Assembly: GCA_035570295.1 (NCBI GenBank)
Contig: DATMMA010000109.1
Location: 1 to 58,933, forward strand
Source of the DNA: Streptosporangiaceae bacterium
GTDB lineage: Bacteria > Actinomycetota > Actinomycetes > Streptosporangiales > Streptosporangiaceae
Direction of reading: 5' to 3'
DNA: 58,933 nt
The notes below the pieces were generated by a model. The model made no database searches, was not told where the DNA came from, and saw only the letters and a program-made list of their open reading frames with translations. This document shows positions 11,367 through 56,649 of the stretch, piece by piece. The position numbers and the translations under genes were made by a program. Within the stretch, counting starts at the first letter, position 1. Each line of letters opens with the position of its first letter.

Positions 11367-11435
11367 TCCGAATCACCTCGCCTGCGCCCGTCGCCTTCCT
11401 CCGCTGCCAGGTGGGGGCTGCGCCCCCAGACCCGG

Positions 11436-39253: not shown

Positions 39254-40623
39254 TGACCGTCGCGACGGACAGGCTGGCGGACCGCTACGCTGCCGTTCGC
39301 CAGGTCATGACCGGGTTCGGCCGGATCGGCGGCTCCGCGGCCGCGGTCATCGGCCTGCCCAGCGTCGGCCGGCTACAAGAACTCATTGCCGCCGGGCCGC
39401 CGGCCGGCCTGATTGCCCGCGGATCCGGGCTGAGCTATGGCGACGCCGCGCTGAACCGGGACGGCCTGGTCGTGACTCCGGTCAGCACCTCGGCAGTAGA
39501 TCTCGACACGGACCGCCAAACCGTGACCGCCACCGCGAGCACGACCTTCGCCGAGATCCTCAGCCACATCGTTCCGGCGGGCTTCATCCTTCCGGTACTG
39601 CCTGCTACCCGGCACCTGACGGTAGGCGGCGCGATCGCGGCAGACGTGCACGGCAAGAACCACCGTCAGGCTGGCAGCTTGTCGGCCTGGGTCGAGCGGG
39701 TCGAGTTGCTTGACGGCACCGGCGAAGTGCGGCAGCTCAGCCTGGTGTCCGATCCGCCCGGCCTGCGGTCGACGGTCGGCGGCATGGGGCTGACAGGCGT
39801 GGTGCTCCGCGCGACGATCCGGCTGCGGCGGATCGAGACCAGCATGGTGCACGTCATCTCGCGCCGAGCGGCCGATCTCGACTCGGCGCTGAGCTTGCTC
39901 GAGGCGACGACGACGCAGTACTCAGTGGCCTGGATCGACGCGACCGCGTCTGGCAAATCGCTCGGCCGTGGTGTCGTGGAGGAAGCCGATCATGCGATCA
40001 GGGCCGACCTGCCCGGCGCGCGGAACGACCTGAGCTACCGCCAGCGGCGCCCGCGCCGGGGTCAGGCCACGCCAGTGGCCCTGGTAACGCCGCTGACCGC
40101 GCGGGCGCTGAGCGGCCTGCGGTTCGCCGCGGCCACGAAGGGGCGCTCTGGCCTGGCCGACCTCGCCACGTTCTTTCACCGGCTGGACGCGGTGCAAGGG
40201 TGGAATCAGGCCGTGAGCCCGCACGGGCTGGTCCAGTACCAGTTCGTGGTGCCGCTCGGCGCCGAGACCGTGCTCGCTGAGGTGCTGGCGTCGGTGCAGC
40301 GCCATCGCTGCGCACCAGTCTTTGGCACGCTGAGGAGATTTGGTATCGGCAGCGGCGGGCCGTTGTCGTTCCCGCTGGCCGGCTGGTGCCTGGCGGTCGA
40401 CATGCCGGCCGGGCAAGCTCAGCTCGGCCCCCTGCTCACCGGGCTGGACCTGCGAGTAGCTGAGGCGGGCGGCCGGATCGACCTGGCCAAGGACGTCAGG
40501 CTCGGCCGGTACGCACTCGAGTCGATGTACCGCAAGCTAACCGACTGGCAGGCTGTCAGGGCCCGGCTAGACCCCCGCGGAGTCTTCCAGTCCGACCTCG
40601 GCCGTAGGCTCGGCCTGTGCTGA
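39253..40623 (+). CDS. dprE1: Decaprenylphosphoryl-beta-D-ribose 2'-oxidase (FAD-dependent)
   Basis: TGFGRIGGS, ARGSGLSYGDAALN, and PVLPATRHLTVGGAIAADVHGKNH align closely by eye with my recollection of mycobacterial DprE1. The ATG overlaps the ubiA stop (TGATG). Confidence 0.85.
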   Translation: MTVATDRLADRYAAVRQVMTGFGRIGGSAAAVIGLPSVGRLQELIAAGPPAGLIARGSGLSYGDAALNRDGLVVTPVSTSAVDLDTDRQTVTATASTTFAEILSHIVPAGFILPVLPATRHLTVGGAIAADVHGKNHRQAGSLSAWVERVELLDGTGEVRQLSLVSDPPGLRSTVGGMGLTGVVLRATIRLRRIETSMVHVISRRAADLDSALSLLEATTTQYSVAWIDATASGKSLGRGVVEEADHAIRADLPGARNDLSYRQRRPRRGQATPVALVTPLTARALSGLRFAAATKGRSGLADLATFFHRLDAVQGWNQAVSPHGLVQYQFVVPLGAETVLAEVLASVQRHRCAPVFGTLRRFGIGSGGPLSFPLAGWCLAVDMPAGQAQLGPLLTGLDLRVAEAGGRIDLAKDVRLGRYALESMYRKLTDWQAVRARLDPRGVFQSDLGRRLGLC

Positions 40624-41405
40624 GTACCGGGTCCAAGGACCGCAGCCGGCCGGCCGCAGCGGGCGAGACCGCCGGGCGGCCGGGTCGCGTGCTGCTGATC
40701 GGTGGCACCAGTGAGATCGGGCTGGCAATCCTGGCGGCCCTGCGGCTCAGCCCGGCAGCTGCAGTCCTGCTCGCGGGCCGGGATGCCGAGCGGCTCCAAG
40801 CCGCGGCGGCCGCGCTACCCTGCCAGGCGACCGTACTTCGCTATGACGCAACTGAGCCAGGCGCCGGGCCCGCTCTCGCCGCCGCCGCCTTCAGTGACGG
40901 CCCTGTCGACCTGGTGATCTCGGCCGCCGGGGTGCTCACGCCCCAGGACCGCATGGACCAGGCTCCCGACGAGGCTGGCGTGCTCATCGAGACGAATTTC
41001 ACCAGCCACGTGACAGCGCTGCTCGCGCTGACCACGCGGATGCGTGCAGCGGGACGCGGCACGATCGTCATCCTGTCGTCGGTGGCGGCGATCAGGCCGC
41101 GTAAGGCGAACTTCGTGTACGGCGCGGCGAAGGCCGGCCTCGACGCTTTTGGCCGCGGCCTGGCGGACTCCCTGCACGGATCAGGCGTGCGCGTGCTGCT
41201 GGTCAGGCCGGGCTTCGTCATCGGGCGGATGACTGCGGGCATGGAGCCGGCCCCGCTGGCCACCACCCCCGAGCAGGTCGGCGCTGCCGTGGCGGCCGGA
41301 CTGGCCGGGCGGGCAAACCTGATCTGGGTGCCGCCTTCGCTCGGCCCGGCAGCTATCCTGATGCGCCTGATGCCGCGGCGCGTCTGGCGCCAGCTACGCA
41401 GGTAG
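40617..41405 (+). CDS. dprE2: Decaprenylphospho-2'-keto-ribose reductase (SDR family)
   Basis: VLLIGGTSEIGLAI Rossmann motif, SSVAA...YGAAKAG (SDR YxxxK). GTG start overlapping the dprE1 stop. Confidence 0.85.
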   Translation: MLSTGSKDRSRPAAAGETAGRPGRVLLIGGTSEIGLAILAALRLSPAAAVLLAGRDAERLQAAAAALPCQATVLRYDATEPGAGPALAAAAFSDGPVDLVISAAGVLTPQDRMDQAPDEAGVLIETNFTSHVTALLALTTRMRAAGRGTIVILSSVAAIRPRKANFVYGAAKAGLDAFGRGLADSLHGSGVRVLLVRPGFVIGRMTAGMEPAPLATTPEQVGAAVAAGLAGRANLIWVPPSLGPAAILMRLMPRRVWRQLRR

Positions 41406-41433: not shown

Positions 41434-42102
41434 ATGCGGGTGCTGGTCGCGGAGGACGACAGCGGGCTATGTGACGTGCTTGCCCGCGGCTTGCGAGAGC
41501 ACGACTATGTAGTCGACGCGGTGCGCAACGGCGAGGACGCTGTCAAGTACCTGCGCAGCTACAGCTACGAACTGGTGCTACTCGACTGGCGGATGCCGGG
41601 CATGTCCGGCCTGGATGTCGTGCGCTGGATGCGGCGGCACAACCAGCCAGCCCCGGTTTTGATGCTGACAGCCCGCGATGCGCCAGCTGACCGGGTTACC
41701 GGGCTCGACGAGGGGGCTGACGACTACCTGGTCAAGCCCTTCGACTTCGATGAACTGCTGGCGCGGATGCGCGCCCTGCTGCGCCGCCCGCCGGCGGTGC
41801 AGCAGCCCGAGCTTGCCGTCGGCGACCTGCGCTTCGATCCCGCGACCCGCGAGGTGCGGGTCGGCACCCGCCACCCCGTGCTCACGGCTACCGAGTTCGG
41901 CATCCTCGAGCTGCTGGTACGCAAGTCGCCGGCGGTCGTCCCGCGACGGTCGATCGCGGTGAACGTCTGGGACGACGAGTCGGATGCGATGGGATCCAAC
42001 ACGATTGACGTGCACCTGGCCCGGCTGCGGGCAAAGCTGGCTGGCGGCATGGTCAGGATCGAGACCATTCGCGGCGTCGGCTACCGCCTCGTGGAACGGT
42101 AG
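41434..42102 (+). CDS. OmpR/PhoB-family response regulator
   Basis: MRVLVAEDD, LLDWRMPGMSG (phospho-acceptor Asp), C-terminal winged helix (IETIRGVGYRL). GGAGAG RBS. Confidence 0.9.
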   Translation: MRVLVAEDDSGLCDVLARGLREHDYVVDAVRNGEDAVKYLRSYSYELVLLDWRMPGMSGLDVVRWMRRHNQPAPVLMLTARDAPADRVTGLDEGADDYLVKPFDFDELLARMRALLRRPPAVQQPELAVGDLRFDPATREVRVGTRHPVLTATEFGILELLVRKSPAVVPRRSIAVNVWDDESDAMGSNTIDVHLARLRAKLAGGMVRIETIRGVGYRLVER

Positions 42103-42105
42103 CCG

Positions 42106-43443
42106 ATGCGGCTGCGCGGCGGCGTGCCGCCGAAAGTGGTCCACGCGGCGAAGGTAGCGGCGGCCGCCAGCCTGCTCGTCGGCGTTGTCTACGCGGCCTG
42201 CGTGACCGTACTGGACCAGGTGGTAACGGCCAGGATGATCGAGGCGGTCGATGTCCGGCTGGCCGAACGGCTGTCTGACGTGCGCGAGATCGGCCTGCAG
42301 GCGCCGGATGAGGACGACATCGATTCAACTCCGGTCTACGTGTGGCAAGTGGGGCGGTCCGCACCGGTCTCGCGGGCCAGCCCCGGCGCGCCGGCGCTGC
42401 CGTCCAGCGTCCGCCTCCGACCGGATGGCGAGAAAACCGCCCGGCTGTCCGGAGCGCCGTTCCGGTTCGTCGCAGGCTCTGAAAACGGCGCCGGGCTGAT
42501 TGCCGGCCAGAGCTTGCAGAGCGTGGATCACCTGACCGCACTGCTGCGGGATGGCGAAGCTCTTGCGGCTCCTGTCCTGCTGCTGTCCGTGTTCGCCGGC
42601 GCGCTCACCATCGGGCTGCGTGCACTCTCCCCGGTCGAGCAGTCACGCCGGCGCCAGCTCGAGTTCACCGCGGACGCGTCGCACGAGTTGCGCTCGCCGC
42701 TGAGCGTGATCAGCGCGGAGACCAGCATCGCTCTCAGCGCCCCCCGGCAGCCGGCCGAATACCGTGCCGCACTGACCCGGATCGAAGACGAGAGCACCCG
42801 GCTGTGCAAGATCGTCGAAGACCTGCTCTGGCTGGCCCGGTTTGACTCGGCGCCGCCGCAGCCTCGTGAGGAGCCGCTGGACCTCGCGACCATCGCCGGC
42901 CAGTGCGCTGAGCGGTTCCGTGCGGTCGGCACCACCAGGGAGTTCGATATCGAGGTAGTGACGAGCGGATCCGCGCCAGCCTGGATTAGCGCCCCGCCGG
43001 AGTGGATCGACCGGCTGACCGGAGTGCTGGTCGACAACGCCTGCCGGTACGCCGGGGCAGGCGGGACAGTCCGGATCACCGTCGCGCATCGCGGCAGCAG
43101 AGTGACGATGACCGTCGAGGACACCGGGCCGGGCATCCCCGCTGAGCTGCGACCCTGGCTATTCGACCGGTTTCGCAGGTCAACCGAGCAGGGCGGCAGT
43201 GCGGGCCTTGGCCTCGCGATCGCCGACTCGATCGTCCGCTCGACCGACGGGCAGTGGCGGCTCGGCGATTCTGAGCTGGGCGGAGCGCTGTTCGAGGTGT
43301 CCTGGCGCCGCGTCGCCGTCCGGCAGCACGGCACTGTGCCCACGAAGCCAGGGTCGCCAGCCAGGCCGGAAGCGCCAGCCGGGCCGGAAACGCCAGTCAA
43401 TCCAGATCACGCTGGACGGTCCAGCCAGCCGACGGCGATGTAG
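42106..43443 (+). CDS. Sensor histidine kinase
   Basis: Two TM segments, H-box FTADASHELRSPLS, N/G boxes (DNACRYAG, DTGPGIP, GLGLAI). Starts 4 nt after the regulator stop. Confidence 0.85.
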   Translation: MRLRGGVPPKVVHAAKVAAAASLLVGVVYAACVTVLDQVVTARMIEAVDVRLAERLSDVREIGLQAPDEDDIDSTPVYVWQVGRSAPVSRASPGAPALPSSVRLRPDGEKTARLSGAPFRFVAGSENGAGLIAGQSLQSVDHLTALLRDGEALAAPVLLLSVFAGALTIGLRALSPVEQSRRRQLEFTADASHELRSPLSVISAETSIALSAPRQPAEYRAALTRIEDESTRLCKIVEDLLWLARFDSAPPQPREEPLDLATIAGQCAERFRAVGTTREFDIEVVTSGSAPAWISAPPEWIDRLTGVLVDNACRYAGAGGTVRITVAHRGSRVTMTVEDTGPGIPAELRPWLFDRFRRSTEQGGSAGLGLAIADSIVRSTDGQWRLGDSELGGALFEVSWRRVAVRQHGTVPTKPGSPARPEAPAGPETPVNPDHAGRSSQPTAM

Positions 43444-44756
43444 GCGGTCACGGCCGCCACGATGATCGGCGGCAGGAGGGCGACACCATTGCCGTACAGC
43501 AGCAGGGTCGCCACCAGCACGGCGGTCATCGGCAGCCTGAGCACTGCCGCGATCATCGCTCCGATGCCCATGGCGATTCCGGCTACCGCCGGCATGCCCG
43601 GCAGATGAGAGAGCGCGACACCCGCCACCGCGCCGACGAACACGGCGGGAAAGATCGGCCCGCCGCGAAAGCTGCTCAGCGATACGCCGTACGCGACCGC
43701 CTTGCAGGCCAGCAACAGCACGAGCACGCCAAGGCCGAAGCTGGCGCGATGGCTGACGAAGGGGCCGAGCTGGCTCTGGCCGGAAAACAGCACGTTAGCT
43801 GCTGATTTGCCGGTCAGCTGACTGAACAGTACGGCGAATCCGGCGACCACCAGTCCGGCCACCGGCGTCAGGACGAGCCGGCGCGGCGCCACTGCGTCCC
43901 GCAGCAGCAGCGCGAACCTCCGGATTGCCTCCGCCAGGACCGCCGCTGCCAGCCCGACCGGCAGGGCCAGGCCAATCTCGGCCAGGCTGGGCCGGGCGAA
44001 GTGCGGCAGGCCGGGGAGAGCGAGTGAGAACGTGCCAAGGCCGCTAAAGCGGCCGAGACCGGTGAACACTAGCGCCCCGATGCCGGACGCCAGCAGGCCG
44101 GGAACGAGAACTAGCTCCATCGTCGCGCCGCCGAGCCCGGCCGCTTCCATCAGCAGGAACGCGCCCGCAAGAGGCGACCCGAGTAGCGTGCTGACAGCCG
44201 CGAAACTGCCGGCCGCGGCGATGACCACCTTGGCCCGGTCGCTACCGCCTGCCCGCGCCCTGGCCACCGCCCAGGCGGCCACGCCACCACCGAGCGCGAG
44301 CAGCGGGGCCTCCGGGCCGAGCACGGCGCCAATGCTCAGCGTGCCCAGCGCCGCCAGGAACACGCCGGGAATGTCTCTGGGTGCCACCACACCGCCGGCC
44401 TTGAAGCCCTCGGCCGGCTCATGACCGGCCGTTCCCGGCAAGTACCTGATGACGAGAGCAACGGCAAGGCCCCCGATCAACAACAGCGGGAACGCCCACC
44501 AAAGTGGTGGCCGCGCCAGCCCGACGCCGGACGGCAGGCTGGTGAAAAGCAACCCTTGCAGCAGGCTGACCAGCGCCAGGAAGCCCCAGGCGAGCGCAGA
44601 GACGGGCACGCCGATGATCGCGGCCAGCAGCAGCAGCCGCAGGTAGGCGGGGCTGCGCATCAGCGCGACAGCATCGGCGGGCGTGCTCAGCTGCGATCTC
44701 CCCGGCGGCAGGCGCGATCGGACCGCCGGGATCCGGCGGTTTATCCCGACGTTCAA
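43407..44756 (-). CDS. ClC-family chloride channel / H+-Cl- antiporter
   Basis: 10+ TM segments, with GPEAPLLALGGG (GxEGP-type) and GGPIFPAVFVGA selectivity motifs. Its 3' end overlaps the kinase gene by 37 nt (convergent). Confidence 0.85.
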   Translation of the reverse strand: MNVGINRRIPAVRSRLPPGRSQLSTPADAVALMRSPAYLRLLLLAAIIGVPVSALAWGFLALVSLLQGLLFTSLPSGVGLARPPLWWAFPLLLIGGLAVALVIRYLPGTAGHEPAEGFKAGGVVAPRDIPGVFLAALGTLSIGAVLGPEAPLLALGGGVAAWAVARARAGGSDRAKVVIAAAGSFAAVSTLLGSPLAGAFLLMEAAGLGGATMELVLVPGLLASGIGALVFTGLGRFSGLGTFSLALPGLPHFARPSLAEIGLALPVGLAAAVLAEAIRRFALLLRDAVAPRRLVLTPVAGLVVAGFAVLFSQLTGKSAANVLFSGQSQLGPFVSHRASFGLGVLVLLLACKAVAYGVSLSSFRGGPIFPAVFVGAVAGVALSHLPGMPAVAGIAMGIGAMIAAVLRLPMTAVLVATLLLYGNGVALLPPIIVAAVTAYIAVGWLDRPA

Positions 44757-44871
44757 CTGCCCGCCCGGGGGTCAGTTCACTCCCCCGCCGCTCCGGCAGG
44801 CCTGTCCCGTCACATCGGTCGCCTGCCGGGTGTCAGTCTGGATGAGACCGGGGGGCGAAGGAAGTGAACAG

Positions 44872-45855
44872 ATGAGCGAGAACGACCTGGGCGGCTTGCT
44901 GGCGGGCGACAGCAACGGAGCGCCGGACGGCGGAGAGCGCGACTGGCTTGCGGATCGGTTCGAGGAGCAGCGGGCACACCTGCACGCGGTTGCCTACCGG
45001 ATGCTGGGCTCGCTCGACGACGCCGACGACGCCGTGCAGGACACCTGGCTGCGGGTGAGCCGTGCGGGCGCAGACGACGTGGCGAACCTCGGCGGCTGGC
45101 TGACTACGATCGTTTCCAGGATTTGCCTGAACATGCTGCGCTCCCGCAACGGCAGGCGCGAGGAGTCGCTGGAGGTGCGCCTTCCCGACCCGATCGTCAG
45201 CCCGGCGGCGAAATCGCAGCCGGAGGATGAGGCATTGCTGGCCGACTCGGTCGGCCTTGCACTGCTGGTCGTACTCGACGCCCTGACACCGGCCGAGCGA
45301 CTGGCGTTCGTGTTGCATGACATGTTCGGGCTGCCGTTCGAGGAGATCGCCCCGGTGGTCGGCCGGACTGCCGCGGCCGCACGGCAACTTGCCAGCAGAG
45401 CCCGGCGCCGGGTCTCCGGCGCCGGGCTCGCCGCGCCAGACCCCGACCTGGCCCGCCAGCGGGAGGTGGTCGATGCGTTCTTCGCAGCTGCCCGCGACGG
45501 TGACTTCGACGCCCTGCTGAAGGTGCTCCATCCCGGCGTTGTCCTGCGCATCGATGCGGGTGGCTTCCACGCTGCGGCGTCTATGGAGGTCCGCGGTGCG
45601 CCGGCCGTCGCGCGGCAGGCGCTCAGCGGCCTGACGAGCCTGCTGCAGGTCGTTCGCCTGACCCACGTCGTCGTCAACGGCGCCGCCGGAGTGGTCGCTT
45701 CCCGGCGCGACCTTCCCGTGACCGTCATTGGCTTCACCATTGCCGACGGCAAGATCGTCGAGATGGACTCGATCGCCGACCCCGAGCGCGTCCGCAGGAT
45801 CACGGCGGGTTCTGGCGTGGGGCCCGACGCGCCAGATTCCCCGCGCGAAGAATGA
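44872..45855 (+). CDS. ECF sigma-70 factor with a C-terminal SnoaL-like extension (SigJ / ECF41-like)
   Basis: Region 2 is HLHAVAYRMLGSLDDADDAVQDTWLR. Region 4 is LTPAERLAFVLHDMFGLPFEEIAPVVGRTAAAARQLASRARRR. A roughly 120-aa extra C-terminal domain follows. ATG at 44872 after GGCGAAGGAAG. Confidence 0.85.
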   Translation: MSENDLGGLLAGDSNGAPDGGERDWLADRFEEQRAHLHAVAYRMLGSLDDADDAVQDTWLRVSRAGADDVANLGGWLTTIVSRICLNMLRSRNGRREESLEVRLPDPIVSPAAKSQPEDEALLADSVGLALLVVLDALTPAERLAFVLHDMFGLPFEEIAPVVGRTAAAARQLASRARRRVSGAGLAAPDPDLARQREVVDAFFAAARDGDFDALLKVLHPGVVLRIDAGGFHAAASMEVRGAPAVARQALSGLTSLLQVVRLTHVVVNGAAGVVASRRDLPVTVIGFTIADGKIVEMDSIADPERVRRITAGSGVGPDAPDSPREE

Positions 45856-46510: not shown

Positions 46511-47338
46511 TCAACCAAATCGGCCATGCACGTAATCAGCAGTGCGGGGATCGACCGGACTCTCGAACAACTGGCGCGTCGCCCCGGATTCCACGATGGC
46601 GCCGGGCGTGTTCTCCGCTGCCAGGAAGAAGGCGCAGTTGTCGGAGACGCGCTGCGCCTGCTGCATGTTGTGCGTCACGATCACGATCGTGACCTGGTTC
46701 TCGAGCTCGCCGATCGTCTCCTCGATCCGCCTGGTGGAGGTCGGGTCAAGCGCCGAGCACGGCTCGTCCATCAGCAACACGTCCGGCGAGACGGCCAGCG
46801 CCCTGGCGATGCACAAGCGCTGCTGCTGCCCGCCGGACAGCGCTCCGCCAGGGGACTTGAGCCGTTGCTGCACTTCGCGCCACAGGCCAGCCCGGCGCAA
46901 GCTCGTCTCGACCAGACTGTCGGTGTCGGGGACTTTGATGCCAGACAGCTTCAGGCCGCTGGCCACGTTCTCGTAGATGGACATGGCCGGGAAAGGATTC
47001 GGTTTCTGGAACACCATCCCGATCCGGCGGCGTATGTCAGCTGGCCTGACGGCAGGCTGATAGATGTCCTGGTCGCCGAGCCTTACCTGGCCGGCCAGCT
47101 GCGCACCCTTCACCATTTCGTGCATGCGGTTCAATACCCGCAGGAACGTGGACTTGCCACAGCCGGATGGCCCGATGAGCGCGGTTACCTTGCCGGGCTC
47201 CATCCGCAGCGACACGCGCTCCAGCACCTTGTGGCCGCTGAACCAGGCGGACACGTTGCGCGCGTCGAGCCCCACCAATCCAGGGTCACGGGTCAGTGTC
47301 TCGGACGGGTAACTGTCAGTCACGGCGATATCGGTCAC
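46511..47338 (-). CDS. pstB: Phosphate ABC transporter ATP-binding protein PstB
   Basis: Walker A GPSGCGKST, signature LSGGQQQRLCIARA, Walker B LLMDEPCSALD, and the PstB-typical C-terminal TADYVHGRFG. Confidence 0.95.
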   Translation of the reverse strand: MTDIAVTDSYPSETLTRDPGLVGLDARNVSAWFSGHKVLERVSLRMEPGKVTALIGPSGCGKSTFLRVLNRMHEMVKGAQLAGQVRLGDQDIYQPAVRPADIRRRIGMVFQKPNPFPAMSIYENVASGLKLSGIKVPDTDSLVETSLRRAGLWREVQQRLKSPGGALSGGQQQRLCIARALAVSPDVLLMDEPCSALDPTSTRRIEETIGELENQVTIVIVTHNMQQAQRVSDNCAFFLAAENTPGAIVESGATRQLFESPVDPRTADYVHGRFG

Positions 47339-47367: not shown

Positions 47368-47395
47368 GGGTTCGGCAGTTCGGGTTCGGCAGTTA
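47368..47395. repeat. 14-bp tandem duplication at the stop codon of the sortase-like gene
   Basis: GGGTTCGGCAGTTC / GGGTTCGGCAGTTA, preceded by a partial GGGTTC. On the minus strand, CTGCCGAACC also ends the coding sequence (LPNL). Confidence 0.7.
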
Positions 47396-48262
47396 GTAGA
47401 GGTTCGGCAGCAGGCCGGCCAGGTTCTGGTACAGGTTCCACAGGATCGCGAGCACAGCGGGCACGATGACCAGGTACGCCGGCCAGCCAGACCAGCGGGC
47501 GGCGGCTGCTGCGCCGCCGAGGCTGGCTAGCACCAGCGCCAGGCCCCACAGCATGGCCAGCACGAGGGCGCCGCTGTCGCCGGCCATCGCCTGCTCAGCC
47601 GGACCGATGGCAGGCATCTGCACCGGCCCGTTGTGCGCGGTCGTCATCAGGTCCGCGTCGATCTCCAGGTAGTAGGCCGGGATTCCGGCCGAGCTCGACG
47701 TCAGCAGAACGAGGCGGTTCAGGTTGCTGTCGGTGACCGGGTGCTGGCTGTCACCGATGGCGACCACCTTGTATACCGACTTGCCCTGCTGGGTATACGT
47801 CGTGATCTCCTCGCCGGGGCGCAGCTCACTCAGGCGGGCGAACGGAGCGCCGAAGGTGGCGCGCCTGCCATAGATCACCGACAACCCGAGCTGGCCCGGG
47901 AGCGGAGTGTTTCGCAGGTGACCGGGGCCGAGGTCAAGCTGCGCGGCGGTCGTGCCCTCTACCACGATGACGTTGCGCAAGCCGATGCTTGCTGCGTCGA
48001 GTATGGCCACCGGCTGACCCAGGCCGGTCGGCCCGAGCGGCCCCAGATCCTGGCCGAGCTTGCCGGCGAACGTCGAGTACAGCCTGCTCTGGACAGCAGC
48101 TTCCTGAACCCGCGAGACACCGAACAGGTAGGCGAGGAATCCGCCGGTGAGCAGGCCCAGGAGGAGGAGGCTCGCACCGACGCAACGGGCAACCATGCTG
48201 CCGCGCGGCACGCTGGCCGGCTCGCCGGCAGCTCCGACCGGCTGCCGGGTCAGCACGGTCAC
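47393..48262 (-). CDS. Sortase-fold membrane protein lacking the catalytic His/Cys/Arg (pseudo-sortase)
   Basis: N-terminal TM, then VAILDAASIGLRNVIVVEGT...GPGHLRNTPLPGQLGLSVIYGRRATFGAPFARLSELRPGEEITTYT...LVLLTSSS. This aligns by eye with class E sortases (PGxxGNxxxxGHR...F..L..L.PGD...TLxTC). The GHR site reads GRR (AGG codon, 47864-47866). The TC site reads TS (TCG codon, 47696-47698). There are two extra C-terminal TM segments. The GTG at 48262 overlaps the upstream stop (GTGA), and an ATG at 48196 is an alternative start. Confidence 0.7.
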   Translation of the reverse strand: MTVLTRQPVGAAGEPASVPRGSMVARCVGASLLLLGLLTGGFLAYLFGVSRVQEAAVQSRLYSTFAGKLGQDLGPLGPTGLGQPVAILDAASIGLRNVIVVEGTTAAQLDLGPGHLRNTPLPGQLGLSVIYGRRATFGAPFARLSELRPGEEITTYTQQGKSVYKVVAIGDSQHPVTDSNLNRLVLLTSSSAGIPAYYLEIDADLMTTAHNGPVQMPAIGPAEQAMAGDSGALVLAMLWGLALVLASLGGAAAAARWSGWPAYLVIVPAVLAILWNLYQNLAGLLPNLY

Positions 48263-49851
48263 CGCGGCACCCGGCTGCGGCGCCGGCGGAGCAATGCGTA
48301 GACGGCCGGTGGCACCGCGACGACGACCAGGATCTCCACCGCGGTCAGCGTCCCGAGCACGGTGCTGTTGCCGCTGGTCGAGGCAACGTTGACCACCGTG
48401 CCGGTCACCGGACCCTCCGGCGGCGCGCCGGACGCCGCCGCCCCCGGCGCGCCCGCCACCGGTACTGCCGCGGTCACGCCCGCACTGGCCCCGGCGCTGG
48501 GGCTTGTGCTGGTCTGCTGGGCGGCGGTGGCTGACACCGCCTTGCCGTGCACGACAGTGCAGCTCAGCGGCTCGCCAGCCTTGTCGCATGGCGAGGGCTG
48601 CGGCGCGTCCACCAGCACGACGAGCTTGCCGTTCTTAATCGTCGGGTTGTCGCAGCCGCTGGACAGGCTCGGTGTCGGTTCGTGACCAGGGATCTTGCTC
48701 GACTGGGATAGCCCGCCTTCCACCAGGTTGAGCGGAAGCGGTGAGTAGCCAAGCTCGGCGGAGTACTGCTGGCCCGCGCACAGGAAGTAGTCGATGTACG
48801 TGCTGAGCGTCTTGCCGTCGGCCGGGGTGAAGTTAGCCGGGATCTTCGTCCCGGTCCTCGGCACGATCAGGTAGCTGTAGCTGGACAGCGGATAAGACCG
48901 CGGGTCCTTGAACGTGTAGACGTTGTCCAGGCTCTGCTGCAAGTAGTTGACGCTGCTGGGGTCTTCGTCGATCTGCGCCTGGGTCAGCGCGACCGCCACG
49001 TTGGAGGCGGTAGGCAGCACGTAGTAGCCGGCCGGGTTGAGCAGCTTGACCACCGGATAGTGCGAGTTGAGCGCGTAGGCGTACTCGTCGTACCCGATCG
49101 CCCCCTGACCGTAGCTCGCGGTGATATAGGTAGCGACGTTGTTCGATCCGTTCTGCGCGACAGAACCCGGGAACTGCGGGTAGAACTCGGTCTGCCCGCA
49201 GGGTGCCTTGACCCGGCCGTGGCTGACCTTGCTGCAGAACGCGTTCCACTGGGCCGGGAACTCGTGCGCCATCCACCGGGTGAGGAAGTAGGTCGCGCCG
49301 GACCCGTCCGCCCGGATCACCGGGATGATCCGCAAGCTGGGCAGCTGGGTGCCGTAGTCCTTGGTGATCTCCGGGTTGTCCCAGTTCGTGATCTGCCCGG
49401 TGAAGATCTTCATGATCGTCTCACCGGACAGTCTGAGGTTGGTGATCAGCTTGCCGCCGACGTCCAGGTGATACATGAAGGCGGTCCCGCCGGCCGTATC
49501 GGGGACGTAGGAGTAGCCGACCTGCGGGTGCTCGGCACCGCTCGCGTCGAACGGGTCCGTGCCGTTGCGGAACGGCGGATCGGACGCGCCGAAGTCGACT
49601 TGCTGATCCATGTAGTCCGCGCGCCCGGCTGCCGAGCCGTCCGGGTTGAAGTTCACCACGATGCCGTCAGCTCGCAGCGTCTGCGCCCATTGCAGCAATG
49701 CGACCGAACTCCACGATGAGCCAGAACCGCTGATCGCAATGTATTGCTGGTCGCTGCTGGCCAAGGCCGGCGACAGCGGCGCGAGCGATGCGAGTGCCGC
49801 TCCGACGGCGACCGCCAGCGTCCGTCCGGCCTGTGGCATCCGCACCCTCAT
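48259..49851 (-). CDS. pstS: PstS-type phosphate-binding protein with a Sec signal peptide, a Cys-containing linker and a C-terminal TM anchor
   Basis: ISGSGSS, VDFGASDPPF, VIRADGSGATYFLTRWM, GAIGYDEYAYA and ITNWDN match E. coli/M. tuberculosis PstS motifs as I recall them. Signal peptide MRVRMPQAGRTLAVAVGAALASLAPLSPALA. The C-terminus is ...TAVEILVVVAVPPAVYALLRRRRSRVPR. The ATG at 49851 (RBS GGAAGGAAG) overlaps the upstream stop (ATGA). Confidence 0.85.
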   Translation of the reverse strand: MRVRMPQAGRTLAVAVGAALASLAPLSPALASSDQQYIAISGSGSSWSSVALLQWAQTLRADGIVVNFNPDGSAAGRADYMDQQVDFGASDPPFRNGTDPFDASGAEHPQVGYSYVPDTAGGTAFMYHLDVGGKLITNLRLSGETIMKIFTGQITNWDNPEITKDYGTQLPSLRIIPVIRADGSGATYFLTRWMAHEFPAQWNAFCSKVSHGRVKAPCGQTEFYPQFPGSVAQNGSNNVATYITASYGQGAIGYDEYAYALNSHYPVVKLLNPAGYYVLPTASNVAVALTQAQIDEDPSSVNYLQQSLDNVYTFKDPRSYPLSSYSYLIVPRTGTKIPANFTPADGKTLSTYIDYFLCAGQQYSAELGYSPLPLNLVEGGLSQSSKIPGHEPTPSLSSGCDNPTIKNGKLVVLVDAPQPSPCDKAGEPLSCTVVHGKAVSATAAQQTSTSPSAGASAGVTAAVPVAGAPGAAASGAPPEGPVTGTVVNVASTSGNSTVLGTLTAVEILVVVAVPPAVYALLRRRRSRVPR

Positions 49852-52223
49852 GGTTTCTTCCTTCCGAGCGCTGGCAACCACCGGGCAAGGCGTGCTCCGC
49901 GGAGCCGCGTCAGCACTGCGGCGCTGCCCCTGCCAGCGACCAGGGCCGCGGAGCCAGCCGCCACCAGCAGGCAACCTCCGATCAGCAGGACCGGCAGCGC
50001 GTAGCGCGCGAGCCCGGCGGTGGCCGGATTGCTGACCAGGCCCAACCCGATCCGGTGATGGGCCTGACCAGCCGGCCTCGGGGGTGCGGTAGCCGACGCG
50101 GTAGCGCTGGCGCTCGCCGACACCGAACCCGCGGTCCCGTGATGCTTGCTACCGCCGGTCTGATCCAGCACCTCTTGGGCAGCCTTCAGCGTCTGCGTGC
50201 GCATGCTGCTGGTGAGCGGCAGGTAGCCCGGCGCCAGCTGGCCGGGCAGCTGACCGGGCCGCTGTCCGCTGCCCGCCACAAAATCGAGGAACTGCGCGAT
50301 CCTCGCGGCCTTCGTCTTCGAGATCCCGCCAGTCGGGACGAGCGCGTAGATGACCATCGTCAGCGGATAGGCGTTCTTCACCTTGCCGTGGTCGTTCTGC
50401 TGCTGGGTGATGTGGTTCCCGCCGGTTTGCATCTCGCCAAGCGCGGCAGCCATCGTGGCGTTCGTCGGCTCGACGTACTGGCCGGCCGGATTCTCGATCG
50501 CCGCGACCGGCAACTGGAATGCCGCCGCGTCGGCCTCGTCGAGGATGGCGAACAGCGCCCGGTCGCCGGGCGTCTCCGGGCTGAGCTTGTCGTAGTTGCC
50601 CTGCGCGTCCTTCACCCAGTTGGTCGCCGGATACCAGTTATCGACCTGGTACGCGGCCACCGCGCTGAGCGGGAACTGCGGGCTGTAGCGGTGCGCGACA
50701 GGAAGGTACGCGTCCATCGAGTTGAGCGTGTTCGTCGGCAGCTGCATCTTCAGGTAGCTCGTGTTGACGTGCTCGCCCCATGGGTCGAAGGTGCCGTCCG
50801 CGAACGACTTGGCGGCGCTGTTCGCGGCCAGCCACCGGGTGAGCTCATAGGTCATGTCGCTCTCGCCGCCCAGTACGGTCGGTATCTGGTACCCGTCGCC
50901 GACGCTCGCCACGTGCGGATTCAGCTTCTTGAACTCGGGATCGGCGAACAGGCTGATGGGGTCAGCGTCGACGGCGTTGTCGCAGCCGATGCTTTTGGGC
51001 GGCTTGCCGTTGCCGCAGCCCTCCTTGTCGAAGTCATAGGACTGCGTCAGCATCTTCAGCACCAGGCTCGGGTCAAGCCGAAGACGGCCCCGCGGCTGGC
51101 CGGTCCGCGGATTGTCCACCCAGTAAGTGATGGCGACCGACGAGATCGCGATTGGCGCATAGGTATACGGGTGCTTGCCGCTGCCGGTTGCGGGCAGCGT
51201 CGTCAGGGCCACGTCATCGAGCCCGCTCAGGAAGTCCTCCCTGGCCAGCGGCTCACTCTGGGCCGAGTCGTACTGGATATTCAGCGGATTGCTGCTTGCG
51301 CAGAGCGCGGACTGCCACTGGACCATGGCGCGCTCGGCCATCGGTGAGCCGATCACGCTGAAGTCAGGGCTGCGGACCGGGCAGTCGGCCGGGGTCGGCG
51401 AGAAATGCAGCGGCACGATGATCCGGTCGCGCCAGGAACACTGTCCGTACTGACTGCTAAAGGCCACCGAGCCGACGTCCGTCTGGTCGGTGTCCTGGCT
51501 GTGGTCGCCGCACCGGACCGGCGTGTCGAAGATATTGCCGCCCTGGGCCGGGACGATGACCAGCGAGCAGGCCTTGCTGTCCTTGCAGCCGAGTTGCTGA
51601 TCCTCTTCGGCGGTGAGCAACTGGATGGGCGCCTGGCCAGTCCCGTTGCGGCTCGTCGTGGCGTACGCGGTATTCATCGGGCCGTAGGCGCTGAAGGTGC
51701 CCGCCACGCCGCCGTTGTCCGCGCCGAAGCACTGACTCCACTTGGTCGGATGCGTTCCCTGGCACTCAGCGACCATGACCGGGTAATCGGTGCTGTCCGG
51801 CGAGTAGAGCGCGTCGCTGCTCGGGGTGAAACCCTGCCAGCGCACCTCGACGACCTGATTGGTCAGGTGCTTAGCCTGGCTCACGGTGACGTAGCTGTGG
51901 GAGGCGAACAGCCGCTTGCCGGCCGGGTCCCACAACCGCGGCCCCTCGACGACGATGCCGCCTCGCGGCGCGGCAGGTGGTTTGGCCGGGCCCGGCTGCG
52001 CTGGCGTGCTCGGGCTGGCGCTCGGACTGGCACTTGGCAAGGCGGTAGGGGACGTGCTTGGTGACGACGTGCTAGCCGTAGGCGACGGGCTGGGCGATGC
52101 CGCCGATGCTTGCGCGGCCCAGGGCAGCAGCACGCCGGACGCCATGAAGCCAGACGCTACGAAGAGTGCGCCGGCCAGCGCTGCGCGGCGGCGCCAGGCG
52201 GCGGTCATCGGCCTAGTTCGCAT
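49848..52223 (-). CDS. Large secreted protein: signal peptide, Ser/Pro linker, Cys-rich N-domain, degenerate PstS-like (PBP type 2) domain, C-terminal TM anchor
   Basis: The C-terminal half aligns by eye with the downstream PstS paralogue: IENPAGQYVEPTNATMAAAL vs LLNPAGYYVLPTASNVAVAL, AYPLTMVIYALVP vs SYPLSSYSYLIVP, and GGESDMTYELTRWL vs ADGSGATYFLTRWM. The anion-binding residues are replaced. The ATG overlaps the pstA stop (TGATG at 52221-52225). Confidence 0.7.
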   Translation of the reverse strand: MRTRPMTAAWRRRAALAGALFVASGFMASGVLLPWAAQASAASPSPSPTASTSSPSTSPTALPSASPSASPSTPAQPGPAKPPAAPRGGIVVEGPRLWDPAGKRLFASHSYVTVSQAKHLTNQVVEVRWQGFTPSSDALYSPDSTDYPVMVAECQGTHPTKWSQCFGADNGGVAGTFSAYGPMNTAYATTSRNGTGQAPIQLLTAEEDQQLGCKDSKACSLVIVPAQGGNIFDTPVRCGDHSQDTDQTDVGSVAFSSQYGQCSWRDRIIVPLHFSPTPADCPVRSPDFSVIGSPMAERAMVQWQSALCASSNPLNIQYDSAQSEPLAREDFLSGLDDVALTTLPATGSGKHPYTYAPIAISSVAITYWVDNPRTGQPRGRLRLDPSLVLKMLTQSYDFDKEGCGNGKPPKSIGCDNAVDADPISLFADPEFKKLNPHVASVGDGYQIPTVLGGESDMTYELTRWLAANSAAKSFADGTFDPWGEHVNTSYLKMQLPTNTLNSMDAYLPVAHRYSPQFPLSAVAAYQVDNWYPATNWVKDAQGNYDKLSPETPGDRALFAILDEADAAAFQLPVAAIENPAGQYVEPTNATMAAALGEMQTGGNHITQQQNDHGKVKNAYPLTMVIYALVPTGGISKTKAARIAQFLDFVAGSGQRPGQLPGQLAPGYLPLTSSMRTQTLKAAQEVLDQTGGSKHHGTAGSVSASASATASATAPPRPAGQAHHRIGLGLVSNPATAGLARYALPVLLIGGCLLVAAGSAALVAGRGSAAVLTRLRGARLARWLPALGRKKP

Positions 52224-53389
52224 CAGGGTTCCTCTATCCGGGGGGTAGACAGCCGCCGCTGCTGCCGCTTCGACAGCTCACCGGGGGCCTTGCCGCCGAT
52301 CAGCCGCGCAATCGTGAACAGCGCGAGCACGATGAGCATGAGCGCGAGCCCGGCGCCCATGCCGCGGGCGACGTAGTTCGGGTCCTGGCCGAAATCCAGG
52401 ATGCTGGTGATGATGACCGTGGGAAGTGTCGCCTGCCAGCCGTGGAAGGGGTTGGCGACCATCTCGTTGGTGAACCCGGCGGTCAGCAGGACCGGCGCGG
52501 TCTCCCCGATGCCGCGTGCCATGGCAAGTACGACGGTCGTGGTGAGACCGGAGCGGGCCGTCGGCAGGATCACCGTCCATACCGTGCGCCATTGACTGCC
52601 GCCGAGCGCGAATGACGCCTCGCGGAGCGTGCCTGGCACCACCCGCAGCACAACTTCAGCTGCCCTGATGACCGTCGGCAGCATCACGATCGCGACGGCC
52701 AGCGCGGCCGCGAAGCCGCACTCGGGCAGGCCGAGGCTGAGGATGGCCAGGGCGTAGACGAGCAGTCCGGCCACGATCGACGGCAGCGCGGTCATCGCGT
52801 TGACGATGGTCCGGACCGGACGCTCCAGACGCCCGCCGACCTCGGTCAGGAACAGCGCTGCCGCGATGCCAAGCGGGACGGACGCCGCGGTCGCCAGGCC
52901 GATCTGCTCGATCGATCCGACGGCAGCGTGCAGGATGCCGCCTTCGGTCAGCGGGCTGAGTGGTCCGCTGAATGCCATCGTGCTGGTCCAGAAATTCAGG
53001 TGCCTGACCGCTGGCAGGCCCTCGATGGCGCTGTAGCCGATCTGCTCGAAGACGACCGCGCAGGCAAAGATTCCGCCGCTGCTGAACAGCACGGCCATGA
53101 TCTTGTTCCTGACCACCAGCCTGGGCCACGTCAGTCCCGCGACCGCCAGGTAGATCAGCGCGAACAGCAGATACCAGCAGAGCCAGAACCCGAACGCCCC
53201 GCTGAACGGCAAGACCTGCTCGTACAGCAGCCAGGTCAGGCAGAGCGACGCCAGCGCTGACCCGGCAACCGAAAGCACGTCCTCCGGACTGACGCGGCGG
53301 ATCTGCAGAACGTCGTCAACGCCGGCGGAGTCGCCCAAATCGTGCCGCCTGACGCCATCGGAGGTGGTCATCTCCCCGTTCCCGCTCAT
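52223..53389 (-). CDS. pstA: Phosphate ABC transporter permease PstA
   Basis: Polytopic membrane protein with EAA-type loop LREASFALGGSQWRTVWTVILPTARSGL and ARGIGETAPVLLTAGF. Located downstream of pstC. Confidence 0.9.
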   Translation of the reverse strand: MSGNGEMTTSDGVRRHDLGDSAGVDDVLQIRRVSPEDVLSVAGSALASLCLTWLLYEQVLPFSGAFGFWLCWYLLFALIYLAVAGLTWPRLVVRNKIMAVLFSSGGIFACAVVFEQIGYSAIEGLPAVRHLNFWTSTMAFSGPLSPLTEGGILHAAVGSIEQIGLATAASVPLGIAAALFLTEVGGRLERPVRTIVNAMTALPSIVAGLLVYALAILSLGLPECGFAAALAVAIVMLPTVIRAAEVVLRVVPGTLREASFALGGSQWRTVWTVILPTARSGLTTTVVLAMARGIGETAPVLLTAGFTNEMVANPFHGWQATLPTVIITSILDFGQDPNYVARGMGAGLALMLIVLALFTIARLIGGKAPGELSKRQQRRLSTPRIEEP

Positions 53390-53405: not shown

Positions 53406-54422
53406 TCAGTCCGCCGTCGCGGCGCCGGACCGCGACCGGTTGATGATGATCGCGGCTAGCGAATTCACGATCAGCGTGATGGCAAACAGCGCGAGACCAG
53501 CCGCCATCAGTGCGGACAACTGGTCGTACGTGGCGTAATTCCAGGCGCCCGCGATCAGCGCGGCGATCGAGTTGCCGCCGCTTTGCAGGATGCGCCAGTT
53601 GAGAGCCGGAGTCGGGCTGATGATCAGCAGCACGGCGATGGTCTCCCCGAGCGCCCGGCCGATGCCGAGCATGGCCGCTCCGACAACTCCGCCGCGACCG
53701 AACGGGAGAACAACTGTTCTGATCATGCCCCAGCGGGTTGAGCCCAGCGCGTAGGCAGCCTCACGCTCGCTCGCGGGCGCCTGCGAGAAGACCTCGCGGC
53801 ATAGCGACGTGATGATGGGGATGGCCATCAGCGAGACCACCATGCCGGCGATGGCAGGCGATCCGACGAAGGTCGACGCGCTTTGCGGGACGGTGATGCG
53901 GAACGGCGGGAACCACCCGATGTGGTGCGACAGCCACGCCATTGTCCCGATGACCCTCGGCATCAAGAAGGCCCGACCCCAGACCGCGTAGATGATGCTC
54001 GGGATCGCGGCCATCAGGTCGATGACGGCGATGAGGAAGCGCCGCAGCCGGCCGGGCGCGTATTCCGCGATGAAGATCGCTGCCGTCAGCGCGACCGGGA
54101 TGGCAATCACCGAAGCGATAGCGGCAATGATGATCGTGTCCGGCAGCATGCCGCCGATGCCGAACTGGTTGCCCACGAACACCCAGCTCTGCTTGGTGAA
54201 GAAGCTAAGGCCGTCGGCCCGCAACGCCCACATGCCGCGGTAGATCAGGAAGACCAGGATCATCGCCGTGATGAGGAAGCTTGACAACCCTGCTGCCCGC
54301 AGCACGCTGCGGAAGATCAGGTCGCCGCGCGAGCCGCGCGACGTAATCGTCCGGGGAACGTCGTCGCCGACCGATGCTGATGCTGGCGGGTTAGGGGCTG
54401 CAGGGCTAATTGCAACGGCCAT
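53406..54422 (-). CDS. pstC: Phosphate ABC transporter permease PstC
   Basis: EREAAYALGSTRWGMIRTVVLPFGRGG and GRALGETIAVLLII, with 6 TM segments. Confidence 0.9.
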   Translation of the reverse strand: MAVAISPAAPNPPASASVGDDVPRTITSRGSRGDLIFRSVLRAAGLSSFLITAMILVFLIYRGMWALRADGLSFFTKQSWVFVGNQFGIGGMLPDTIIIAAIASVIAIPVALTAAIFIAEYAPGRLRRFLIAVIDLMAAIPSIIYAVWGRAFLMPRVIGTMAWLSHHIGWFPPFRITVPQSASTFVGSPAIAGMVVSLMAIPIITSLCREVFSQAPASEREAAYALGSTRWGMIRTVVLPFGRGGVVGAAMLGIGRALGETIAVLLIISPTPALNWRILQSGGNSIAALIAGAWNYATYDQLSALMAAGLALFAITLIVNSLAAIIINRSRSGAATAD

Positions 54423-55231: not shown

Positions 55232-55312
55232 CTTGTTCTTACTCGGCATGTTCTTGCTCGGGATGTCATTGCTCGGGATGTCATTGCTCGCGATGTCATT
55301 GCTCGCGATGAC
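55232..55312. repeat. 15-bp head-to-tail tandem repeat array (about 5.3 units), starting 9 nt upstream of the 204-aa gene start codon
   Basis: Units on the plus strand: CTTGTTCTTACTCGG, CATGTTCTTGCTCGG, GATGTCATTGCTCGG, GATGTCATTGCTCGC, GATGTCATTGCTCGC, then partial GATGACAAG. The units become more degenerate toward the gene start. Confidence 0.9.
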
Positions 55313-55433: not shown

Positions 55434-56594
55434 TCAGGAGCCGAAGCCGCAAAGCTTCGTGGTGAGGAAGCCGTAATTGACGATGGCCTGCTGCGCTTCC
55501 TTGTTCGCGCAGAACCAGCCCTTGACCTTCGAGGTCGCCGATGCGAAGAACGGCTCGAGCCGGTTCGGGATGTGATCGCCGTTGGTGGACTTGGTGGCAT
55601 ACCAGACAAGGTCGTACAGCGGCCGCAGGAACGTCTCGCCCAGCTTCGTGTTGATCTTGGTCTTGGTGCCGGTGCCGACGGTGGCTTGCTGGATGCCGCC
55701 AGTTCCGAGGTTCAGCGCGCCGAGCTTCAGGGTTCCGTGCTCGTCACAGCCAAACGCGTTCTGGCTCTTGGTCGGCTTCCTGCCGCACTTGGCGTCGTGG
55801 TGGACCTGCGCGATGTACTTGCCCACCGAGTAGGGCGCGATGACCTCAGGAGCGGTCGTCGCATTCGTGAACACCGAGGCGGTGCCCTCGTTCTGCTGCA
55901 CGACGGTCGCGCAGGTCGGGAACGAGGAAATGCCCAGCGCCTTGAGCCAGAACTTGGTCACTCCGGTAGTGGACGCCGGCAGCGCGACGACGATCGGAGC
56001 ATCGGCGCCGCCGACGTCGCTCCATTTCGCGTCGGTGCAACTGAAGATGTCGTGCAGTTGCGACGGCGTCAGGTTCGCCGGCGCGTCCGTGGTGGAGTTG
56101 ACCGCGTAAGTCTCCGCGTCCTCGGCCAGGCGCACGTACAGGTCACCGTTCGGGGTCTTGTTCAGCGGGTCGCTCGAGCGGTAGCTAGCCTCGCGGGCGA
56201 AGTCGATGCAGTCATAGCCACGCGTCTTGACGTTCGCCTCGAAGGCGGTCAGGCCGAGTCCCGAGCCATCTGGCCGTGCCACAGACTTGCAACCTTGCTT
56301 AGTCACGATCGTGCTGGTCAGGTTGTTCGGGTTCTTCGGCGGCACCGCGTCCCAGCTGTAGATCCACGGGTGACTCTTGTTGTGCACTTTCTTGTGCGCC
56401 GCGTCGTAGTCAGCCGCCAGCTGATCGACCAAGAAGTCGTCGGTGTCGGAGCCCACGCCGACGACGTCATAGTTCCGCGGCACGATGGTTTTGCCATGGC
56501 TGGTGGGCGGGTCGGCCAGGGCCGGCGCCGCCGCCAGCGCGGTCACGGTGACCGATGCGGCGGCGATGGCAACCAGGCTCATGAGCTTGCGCAC
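55434..56594 (-). CDS. PBP-like-2 (PstS-family) substrate-binding protein, divergent, at the canonical pstS position
   Basis: Signal peptide VRKLMSLVAIAAASVTVTALAAAPALA, VGVGSDT, RPDGSGLG, and LTPSQLHDIFSCTDAKWSDVGG are typical of PBP_like_2 proteins. The GTG at 56594 lies 4 nt after AGGAGGA, and an ATG at 56582 is an alternative. Several Cys pairs. Confidence 0.75.
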   Translation of the reverse strand: MRKLMSLVAIAAASVTVTALAAAPALADPPTSHGKTIVPRNYDVVGVGSDTDDFLVDQLAADYDAAHKKVHNKSHPWIYSWDAVPPKNPNNLTSTIVTKQGCKSVARPDGSGLGLTAFEANVKTRGYDCIDFAREASYRSSDPLNKTPNGDLYVRLAEDAETYAVNSTTDAPANLTPSQLHDIFSCTDAKWSDVGGADAPIVVALPASTTGVTKFWLKALGISSFPTCATVVQQNEGTASVFTNATTAPEVIAPYSVGKYIAQVHHDAKCGRKPTKSQNAFGCDEHGTLKLGALNLGTGGIQQATVGTGTKTKINTKLGETFLRPLYDLVWYATKSTNGDHIPNRLEPFFASATSKVKGWFCANKEAQQAIVNYGFLTTKLCGFGS

Positions 56595-56649
56595 ACGTCC
56601 TCCTGCGCTTAGTCGAAGCCTGCCGGCGGGACTGAACACCGCAGGCTGG

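Follow-up and report, generated by a model that had tools for sequence, protein, structure and literature searches.

A sortase-fold protein family that lacks the catalytic triad and is encoded within Pst-type importer cassettes of actinobacteria

To our knowledge, sortases are treated as cysteine transpeptidases without exception. The DNA analysed here, a 58,933-nucleotide stretch of a Streptosporangiaceae bacterium (assembly GCA_035570295.1, contig DATMMA010000109.1, positions 1 to 58,933; hereafter the window), encodes a 289-aa protein that an earlier note, made from the sequence alone, had taken for a sortase homologue with all three catalytic residues replaced, lying inside a phosphate-transport operon. 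The locus raises the question of whether this protein, hereafter the pseudo-sortase, keeps the sortase fold after losing the chemistry, and what such a protein would do beside a transporter. We place it in a branch of the sortase superfamily that is polytopic, non-catalytic and new in its genomic role. Our reading, to which we give a probability of about one half, is that it is a sortase-fold pseudoenzyme with three transmembrane (TM) segments, a dedicated, co-inherited accessory of a distinct actinobacterial Pst-type cassette that serves as a scaffold or receptor for anchored binding proteins. The features of the gene and its product are as follows.

47393..48262, minus strand: pseudo-sortase coding sequence, 289 aa (open reading frame (ORF), Pfam, PDB alignments, AlphaFold2 (AF2), Foldseek)
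48116..48184, minus strand: TM1, N-terminal membrane anchor, residues ~27-49 (AF2 helix 20-70, hydrophobic sequence)
47648..48013, minus strand: sortase-fold beta-barrel domain, residues 84-205 (Pfam, NCBIfam, PDB profile alignment, Foldseek)
47864..47866, minus strand: AGG, encoding Arg133 in place of the catalytic His, just past strand beta4 (alignments)
47696..47698, minus strand: Ser189 codon TCG at the catalytic Cys position, end of beta7 (alignments)
47669..47671, minus strand: Tyr198 codon TAC at the catalytic Arg position, start of beta8 (profile alignment)
47414..47575, minus strand: pair of extra TM helices at the C-terminus, 230-256 and 259-283 (AF2, full-length family conservation)
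47396..47413, minus strand: C-terminal LLPNLY, predicted to lie outside the cell and to adjoin the sortase domain

The pseudo-sortase matched the Pfam Sortase profile PF04203 with 49.3 bits (E=5e-13; gathering cut-off 26.6), the match spanning only profile positions 7-82 of 125 and ending before the Cys, and its top NCBIfam match was class_E_sortase (NF033747; 62.8 bits over profile positions 2-159 of 211), a score that falls far short of the 160 bits curated as the threshold for that class. A phmmer search against the PDB retrieved sortases of classes E and D, with 5uus first (4.5e-11) ahead of 4d70, 5go5, 5utt and 5cuw, and a profile of 144 diverse family members matched SrtE (5go6) at 1.7e-26. 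An AF2 model built from a 144-sequence alignment had a predicted local distance difference test score (pLDDT) of 95.1 and a predicted template modelling score (pTM) of 0.88; a shallow alignment of 20 sequences had given an unusable model with a pLDDT of 50. When this model was compared with the PDB by Foldseek (E<=0.001), the 50 best matches listed were all sortase chains, the best of them being 4d70 (probability 1.0, target-normalized TM-score (TMt) 0.80, root-mean-square deviation 3.2 Å over 162 columns), SrtE 5go5/5go6 (TMt 0.72) and SrtE1 5cuw (TMt 0.67). These results indicated that the protein is a member of the sortase superfamily by fold and by significant profile similarity, as the earlier note had supposed. 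Neither Pfam nor NCBIfam holds a dedicated model for its family, and an exact look-up of the 289-aa sequence returned no matching database record.

The catalytic triad of the class E sortase SrtE1 consists of His251, Cys320 and Arg329 (PMC5148588). In the phmmer alignments to PDB chains, GRR of the pseudo-sortase was placed on GHR, and the 4d70 alignment set S189 on the Cys. The family profile, aligned with SrtE 5go6, gave the same picture, with 'GRratfGaPF' on 'GHRRTYGDPF', 'LtLvtAd' on 'LTLTTCE' and 'sgRlvVdAdL' on 'SHRLIVWAHL'. The phmmer and profile alignments therefore put R133, S189 and Y198 at the SrtE1 His251, Cys320 and Arg329 positions, R133 being placed by both methods, S189 by the 4d70 and profile alignments and Y198 by the profile alignment, and the three replacements that had been read by eye (Arg for the GHR His, Ser for the TLxTC Cys and the loss of the conserved Arg downstream) all held, as did the AGG and TCG codons given for the first two. 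Judged by its sequence, the pseudo-sortase lacks each of the residues (His, Cys and Arg) by which a catalytic member of the sortase superfamily (PF04203, MEROPS C60) is recognized. Its single Cys, C27, lies inside TM1, and the extracellular domain is free of Cys.

The same loss was seen throughout a large family. A profile search of 1.84 billion cluster representatives (50% identity clusters) yielded 436 representatives at E<1e-30, from several actinobacterial orders and metagenome-assembled genomes (MAGs), and the best 150 of the 436 mostly aligned over their full length, both C-terminal TMs included. Columns were counted in 136 full-length sequences, namely 135 of the 50%-identity representatives and the window protein. 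The catalytic His column was R122/K9/H5, the catalytic Cys column was A65/S53/G7/T4/V3/L2, and the catalytic Arg column held R in only about one quarter of the sequences. Further members were gathered from metagenomes with a hand-made degenerate DNA pattern, which found 120 loci, 118 of them with a family member; 108 of the 118 were complete to the C-terminal end, with a median identity of 36% to the window protein. Since the pattern itself admits nothing but Arg or Ser at the catalytic His position, only the Cys column is informative in this set, and it read A87/S13/T4/G4. A survey of orthologues for the Cys had been proposed, and it gave a uniform answer: C was never present at this position, either among the 136 sequences or among the 108 metagenomic members. 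Close homologues, ~287 aa long, at least 64% identical and derived from uncultured Streptosporangiaceae-like soil MAGs, had invariant R133 and R134 and a Cys column of A59/T34/S28. The ratio of nonsynonymous to synonymous substitution rates (dN/dS) between the window gene and four orthologues was 0.18-0.26. Thus, with the fold retained, the catalytic residues gone and the gene under purifying selection, the pseudo-sortase is a pseudoenzyme in the operational sense.

The AF2 model also revealed the membrane architecture. A long N-terminal helix (residues 20-70) comprises TM1 and a helical stalk reaching to about residue 70, with basic residues preceding the hydrophobic helix 27-49; the beta-barrel (84-205) follows, and then the two TM helices 230-256 and 259-283. 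The protein therefore has one N-terminal and two C-terminal TM helices, the latter being a gain over the single retained anchor, as had been proposed, and this arrangement is predicted to place an N-terminal anchor in the membrane and the sortase domain outside it. The final 10-residue block of the model had a pLDDT of ~97. At the very C-terminus, L-P-N is almost invariant (L and P in 105 of the 108 metagenomic members), the family ending in LLPN(L/T/V)x-COOH and some members in LPNT-x. The LPNT-x ends resemble an LPxT sorting motif sited beside the protein's own sortase barrel. On the predicted topology, the LLPN(L/T/V)x tail could be an intramolecular pseudo-substrate.

Among known sortases, the class E enzymes are the best sequence relatives (Streptomyces coelicolor SrtE1 5CUW, Streptomyces avermitilis SrtE 5GO5, Corynebacterium diphtheriae SrtF 5UUS and Actinomyces oris SrtA 5UTT), sharing with the pseudo-sortase the beta-barrel, the N-terminal TM anchor, an actinobacterial host and the motifs VVEGT, GPGH, LPGQxG, G-x-R-x-T-F-G-x-P-F and L-x-L-x-T. 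The earlier likening to class E stood to this extent, but it did not extend to class membership, since the score reached only 62.8 of the 160 bits set by NF033747 and the Tyr typical of the class is replaced. In class E sortases this Tyr, in the beta3/beta4 loop (GH-Y; SrtE1 Tyr229), reads the Ala of LAxTG (PMC5148588), whereas in the pseudo-sortase GPGH is followed by L116, and the family column is L or R. The groove position two residues before the catalytic His, an Ala in SrtE1, is Y131. Unlike class E sortases, moreover, the pseudo-sortase has Arg, Ser and Tyr in place of His, Cys and Arg, carries two extra C-terminal TMs and an LLPN terminus, and is encoded in a Pst cassette rather than beside LAxTG substrates or developmental genes. 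The best structural match was the Clostridium perfringens class D sortase 4D70, for which the sequence alignment runs through the TLxTC region; 4D70, however, is an active Cys enzyme from another phylum and has no C-terminal TMs.

Named carriers of the family include Amycolatopsis sp. GM8, Actinokineospora auranticolor, Phytohabitans, Streptomyces sp. and Acidimicrobiales MAGs, and in databases all their proteins are labelled "sortase", "sortase A" or "class E sortase". Cys-less members such as P0002, P0003, P0278, P0307 and P0310, among others, appear as 'sortase A', 'class E sortase' or 'LPXTG-site transpeptidase'. These labels amount to a systematic mis-annotation, and sortase and surface-protein inventories in Actinomycetota are inflated because of it. 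The full-text literature searches that ran to completion turned up no account of pseudo-sortases or of sortases encoded in pst operons.

We then turned to the genes around the pseudo-sortase. In the window it lies in a cassette of tightly packed or overlapping minus-strand genes, running from a PstS-like gene to pstB in the order short PstS-like protein, 204-aa protein, pstC, pstA, 791-aa protein, 530-aa PstS, pseudo-sortase and pstB.

55434..56639, minus strand: 401-aa divergent PBP_like_2 (short PstS-like) protein, the first cassette gene
53406..54422, minus strand: pstC permease (Pfam, NCBIfam)
52223..53389, minus strand: pstA permease (Pfam, NCBIfam)
49848..52223, minus strand: 791-aa protein in which an N-terminal domain without an assigned family precedes a degenerate PstS fold (~291-657), the end being a TM with a basic tail
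50013..50030, minus strand: NPATAG, adjoining the C-terminal TM of the 791-aa protein on its N-terminal side (NPxT[SA]G among orthologues)
48259..49851, minus strand: 530-aa PstS homologue, its stop overlapping the pseudo-sortase start
48400..48414, minus strand: GPVTG juxtamembrane motif of the 530-aa PstS, residues 480-484, conserved among orthologues
46511..47338, minus strand: pstB, ABC ATPase, 54 nt downstream of the pseudo-sortase (Pfam, NCBIfam)

The phosphate-transport operon claimed for this locus was borne out by NCBIfam matches to all four Pst components. PstC scored 240 (cut-off 196), PstA and PstB fell just below their equivalog cut-offs (184 versus 193 and 335 versus 343), and the 530-aa PstS scored 159 against a cut-off of 205 with its binding motifs kept. 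PstC, PstA, PstB and PstS of a Pst-type ABC importer are therefore encoded together, with phosphate the presumed substrate on sequence grounds. Neighbouring genes overlap by 1 nt (pstA and the 791-aa gene), 4 nt (the 791-aa and 530-aa genes) and 4 nt (the 530-aa gene and the pseudo-sortase), and these overlaps suggest translational coupling. At the last of these junctions, the GTG start of the pseudo-sortase shares 4 nt (GTGA) with the TGA stop of the 530-aa PstS gene, and the GTG start is supported by homologues having the same N-terminus, MT(A/V)L...

The linkage proved to be a property of the family. For this comparison, the 791-aa protein family is termed Big, the 530-aa family PstS-long and the pseudo-sortase pSrt, and related genome loci were found with an alignment of close homologues. 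The order PstC, PstA, Big, PstS-long, pSrt, PstB was kept in 22 of 22 close genome loci. Six distant loci also carry homologues of PstC, PstA, PstB, PstS-long, Big and PstS-short, in varying order; distant cassettes occur in Amycolatopsis, Actinokineospora, Streptomyces sp., Phytohabitans and MAGs, keep a homologue of the 401-aa short PstS-like protein and sometimes encode extra secreted proteins. As for the metagenomic loci, PstB was encoded downstream of pSrt, and on its strand, in 37 of the 41 loci whose flank was 1.8 kb or longer; in 33 of the 35 with 3 kb or more, Big or PstS-long lay upstream; and at least one cassette homologue was present at 95 of 108. In many contigs of long-read 'MFD' MAGs (L001, L006, L014, L015, L017, L022, L023), cassette genes are split by apparent frameshifts, the tblastn matches changing frame, and any gene call or fusion taken from such assemblies should be treated with care.

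Between the 204-aa gene and the short PstS-like gene, directly upstream of the former, there is a 15-nt tandem repeat, TGTTCTTGCTCGGGA (plus-strand consensus), at 55234-55310, with 5.1 copies and 91% matches; it may be a regulator-binding array.

The two proteins encoded upstream are candidate partners of the pseudo-sortase. The 530-aa protein matched a PDB PstS (8ods) at 2e-26 and retains the motifs SGSGSSW, GSAAG, FGASDPP and RADGSGAT, which correspond to the phosphate-binding residues of Escherichia coli PstS. Its signal peptide is of the Sec type, with no lipobox; the protein also has a low-complexity linker and ends in a TM and an RRRR tail. In the 791-aa protein, residues ~291-657 form a degenerate PstS fold in which the phosphate-binding motifs are replaced. 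This fold was seen only by hhalign against the neighbouring PstS family (probability 96.6% versus the 530-aa family); sequence comparison with the PDB gave no significant match (only a chance transketolase, E=0.04), and there was no Pfam match above the cut-off. Its N-terminal ~290 aa are a Cys-containing domain without an assigned family, and its homologues, 840-960 aa long, are present in every distant cassette. Judged from their sequences, the binding proteins of the cassette are held by C-terminal TM anchors and not by lipid anchors.

In the close clade both tails bear a conserved segment just before the TM, which reads EGPVTGxVVNLAS in the 530-aa PstS and NPxT[SA]G(L/I)ARYA in the 791-aa protein. 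The neighbours in the window itself carry GPVTG and NPATAG, not LAxTG. In loci L025, L028, L029 and L085, the gene directly upstream of pSrt ends in a canonical sorting signal (LASTG, LAATG, LPRTG or LATTG) followed by a TM and a basic tail. These secreted proteins are encoded at L025 6283-7875, L028 7456-8922 and L029 8357-9004, and also in L085, and the sorting-signal genes upstream of distant pseudo-sortases are often near genes for Big_3_5-domain proteins. The Streptomyces sp. locus L028 encodes in addition, right after pstB (10844-11569), a 241-aa protein with VGH...TLQTC motifs, which by sequence is probably a true Cys-containing sortase beside the pseudo-sortase cassette.

Because the triad is lost, the family is conserved and the gene is linked to the cassette, a scaffold or binding role rather than cleavage is most likely for the pseudo-sortase, and we infer that it binds peptides and acts as a scaffold. 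The earlier note had suggested that it holds the C-terminal tails of the two upstream proteins. Translational coupling, strict co-occurrence, the GPVTG and NPxT[SA]G motifs in both tails and the LAxTG/LPxTG neighbours of distant members speak in favour of this putative role. In this mechanism, the N-terminal and C-terminal TMs would anchor the barrel on both sides and keep it close to the outer face of the membrane, the place at which genuine sortases encounter their sorting signals. Having kept peptide recognition and lost cleavage, the barrel would capture the anchored PstS and the large PstS-fold protein by their juxtamembrane segments and TM anchors, and in other lineages the neighbouring LAxTG/LPxTG proteins, and the captured proteins would be kept assembled beside PstCA. 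Its own extracellular tail, LPN(L/T)x, may sit in the groove or control access to it. The full form of this proposal, in which a dead-sortase family has been repurposed as sorting-signal receptors that tether TM-anchored binding proteins, some with LAxTG/LPxTG signals, to a Pst-type importer, with the LPN(L/T)x tail gating the groove, is tentative, and we regard it as appreciably less probable than the general accessory role.

Several observations weigh against the receptor role. The SrtE1 substrate-contact residues are replaced by L116 and Y131, so that the canonical groove may be remodelled or filled. Beyond the close clade the PstS-long motif becomes (V/I)TGxV(V/I)x(L/V)(A/P), in which the Pro is not conserved, the distant Big and PstS-long tails have no sortase-like motif or xPxTG, and the C-termini of the most distant PstS-long orthologues comprise nothing beyond a TM, a PP motif and a tail of basic residues. 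No clear PHO box was seen upstream of the cassette in an inspection by eye only. A 1211-aa ORF (P0222, L151 6001-9636), lying in a PstB-PstC-PstA cassette, runs from Big through its TM into the pseudo-sortase, an order that makes sense topologically. It could be a genuine Rosetta-stone fusion or else an artefact of a frameshift, and it counts as weak evidence for the scaffold role because its long-read MAG has frequent frameshifts.

GPVTG was considered as an LPxTG-like sorting signal in its own right, and this was downgraded because the Pro is not conserved in the metagenomic tails; since it is not conserved across the wider diversity, the resemblance to xPxTG should not be over-read.

Other explanations have to be set against a non-catalytic accessory. 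The simplest, that the gene is a decaying, functionless relic or that the substitutions are sequencing errors, would account for the absence of all three catalytic residues, but the same state occurs in hundreds of diverged homologues, and dN/dS of ~0.2, many other invariant positions and synteny across orders all oppose decay; it was rejected on this conservation evidence, and we consider it extremely improbable. The earlier note had thought a sequencing error unlikely from the number of codon changes needed, and the family-wide loss under purifying selection excludes one far more firmly than that argument did. Could the protein still be an enzyme, with another nucleophile (for example Thr188 or the Ser of the T-x motif) and Arg/Lys133 as the base, that processes the tails of the cassette proteins? 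T188 is indeed T or S in 134 of the 136 representatives, position 133 is always basic (R/K/H), and canonical LAxTG/LPxTG proteins adjoin some family members. The Thr of TLxTC, however, is conserved in real sortases too, for structural reasons, the Arg column is not conserved, and the Cys column freely takes A, G, V and L, a tolerance that makes such an enzyme unlikely. We know of no Thr/Arg sortase chemistry, which also counts against this explanation, and we hold it to be quite improbable.

Two explanations that accept the loss of chemistry are somewhat less remote, though each is in our estimate still unlikely, and equally so. The protein may be a decoy or retention factor that competes with a housekeeping sortase, so that transporter-associated proteins stay membrane-anchored and are not moved to the cell wall. 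A sortase fold without chemistry would suit this, as would the neighbours with cell-wall sorting signals directly upstream in L025, L028, L029 and L085, but a decoy would have nothing to protect in the window clade and several distant cassettes, because the partner tails there are not canonical sorting signals; it is, besides, a special case of the binding model, from which the present data do not separate it. Or the protein may be a structural or regulatory subunit with no client tails, its groove permanently filled by its own LPN(L/T)x, acting through the TM bundle on PstCA or binding lipid II or peptidoglycan. The near-invariant LLPN (105 of 108), predicted to be extracellular beside the barrel and in some members LPNT-x, fits a filled groove, as does the compact AF2 model with its pTM and its confident final block given above. 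This explanation, however, leaves the constant company of anchored binding proteins unaccounted for.

The proposed accessory role has a parallel in logic among the dead rhomboids. iRhoms and Derlins are conserved membrane protease folds without catalytic residues that bind clients rather than cleave them; their fold, kingdom and clients are unrelated to those of the pseudo-sortase. Compared with a canonical PstSCAB system, the cassette has PstC, PstA and PstB homologues and a PstS with phosphate-binding motifs in common, but here PstS is anchored by a C-terminal TM and not by lipid, and two further PstS-fold proteins (one the degenerate 791-aa protein) are present, with the pseudo-sortase as a conserved seventh component. 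A large conserved branch with the sortase fold, no sortase chemistry and a new membrane architecture would be a clear bacterial membrane pseudoenzyme, and its strict coupling to a Pst-like cassette with C-terminally anchored PstS-fold proteins suggests that there is an ABC-importer accessory subunit yet to be described, and that soil actinobacteria possess a distinct apparatus for scavenging phosphate. If the sorting-signal receptor proposal were true, it would represent a new way to attach binding proteins to Gram-positive ABC importers and the first functional pseudo-sortase. Since Amycolatopsis sp. GM8, Actinokineospora auranticolor, Phytohabitans and the Streptomyces sp. are cultured carriers, the question is directly testable.

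The remaining annotated features of the window lie on either side of the cassette. Upstream of it are a 277-aa AAA_21/ABC-like ATPase with weak ABC_tran similarity (56832-57665, minus strand) and a copper amine oxidase (57728-58918, minus strand). Beyond pstB, an ECF sigma factor fused to a SnoaL_2 domain is encoded at 44683-45855 (plus strand) and a CLC-type channel at 43407-44756 (minus strand). An ORF pair at 41434-43443 (plus strand), which by eye only resembles a response regulator and a sensor histidine kinase, could regulate the cassette. Finally, a UbiA prenyltransferase, an FAD_binding_4/ALO oxidase and a short-chain dehydrogenase are encoded in a row at 38309-41405 (plus strand), a trio that resembles the actinobacterial UbiA/DprE1/DprE2 arabinan-precursor cluster.

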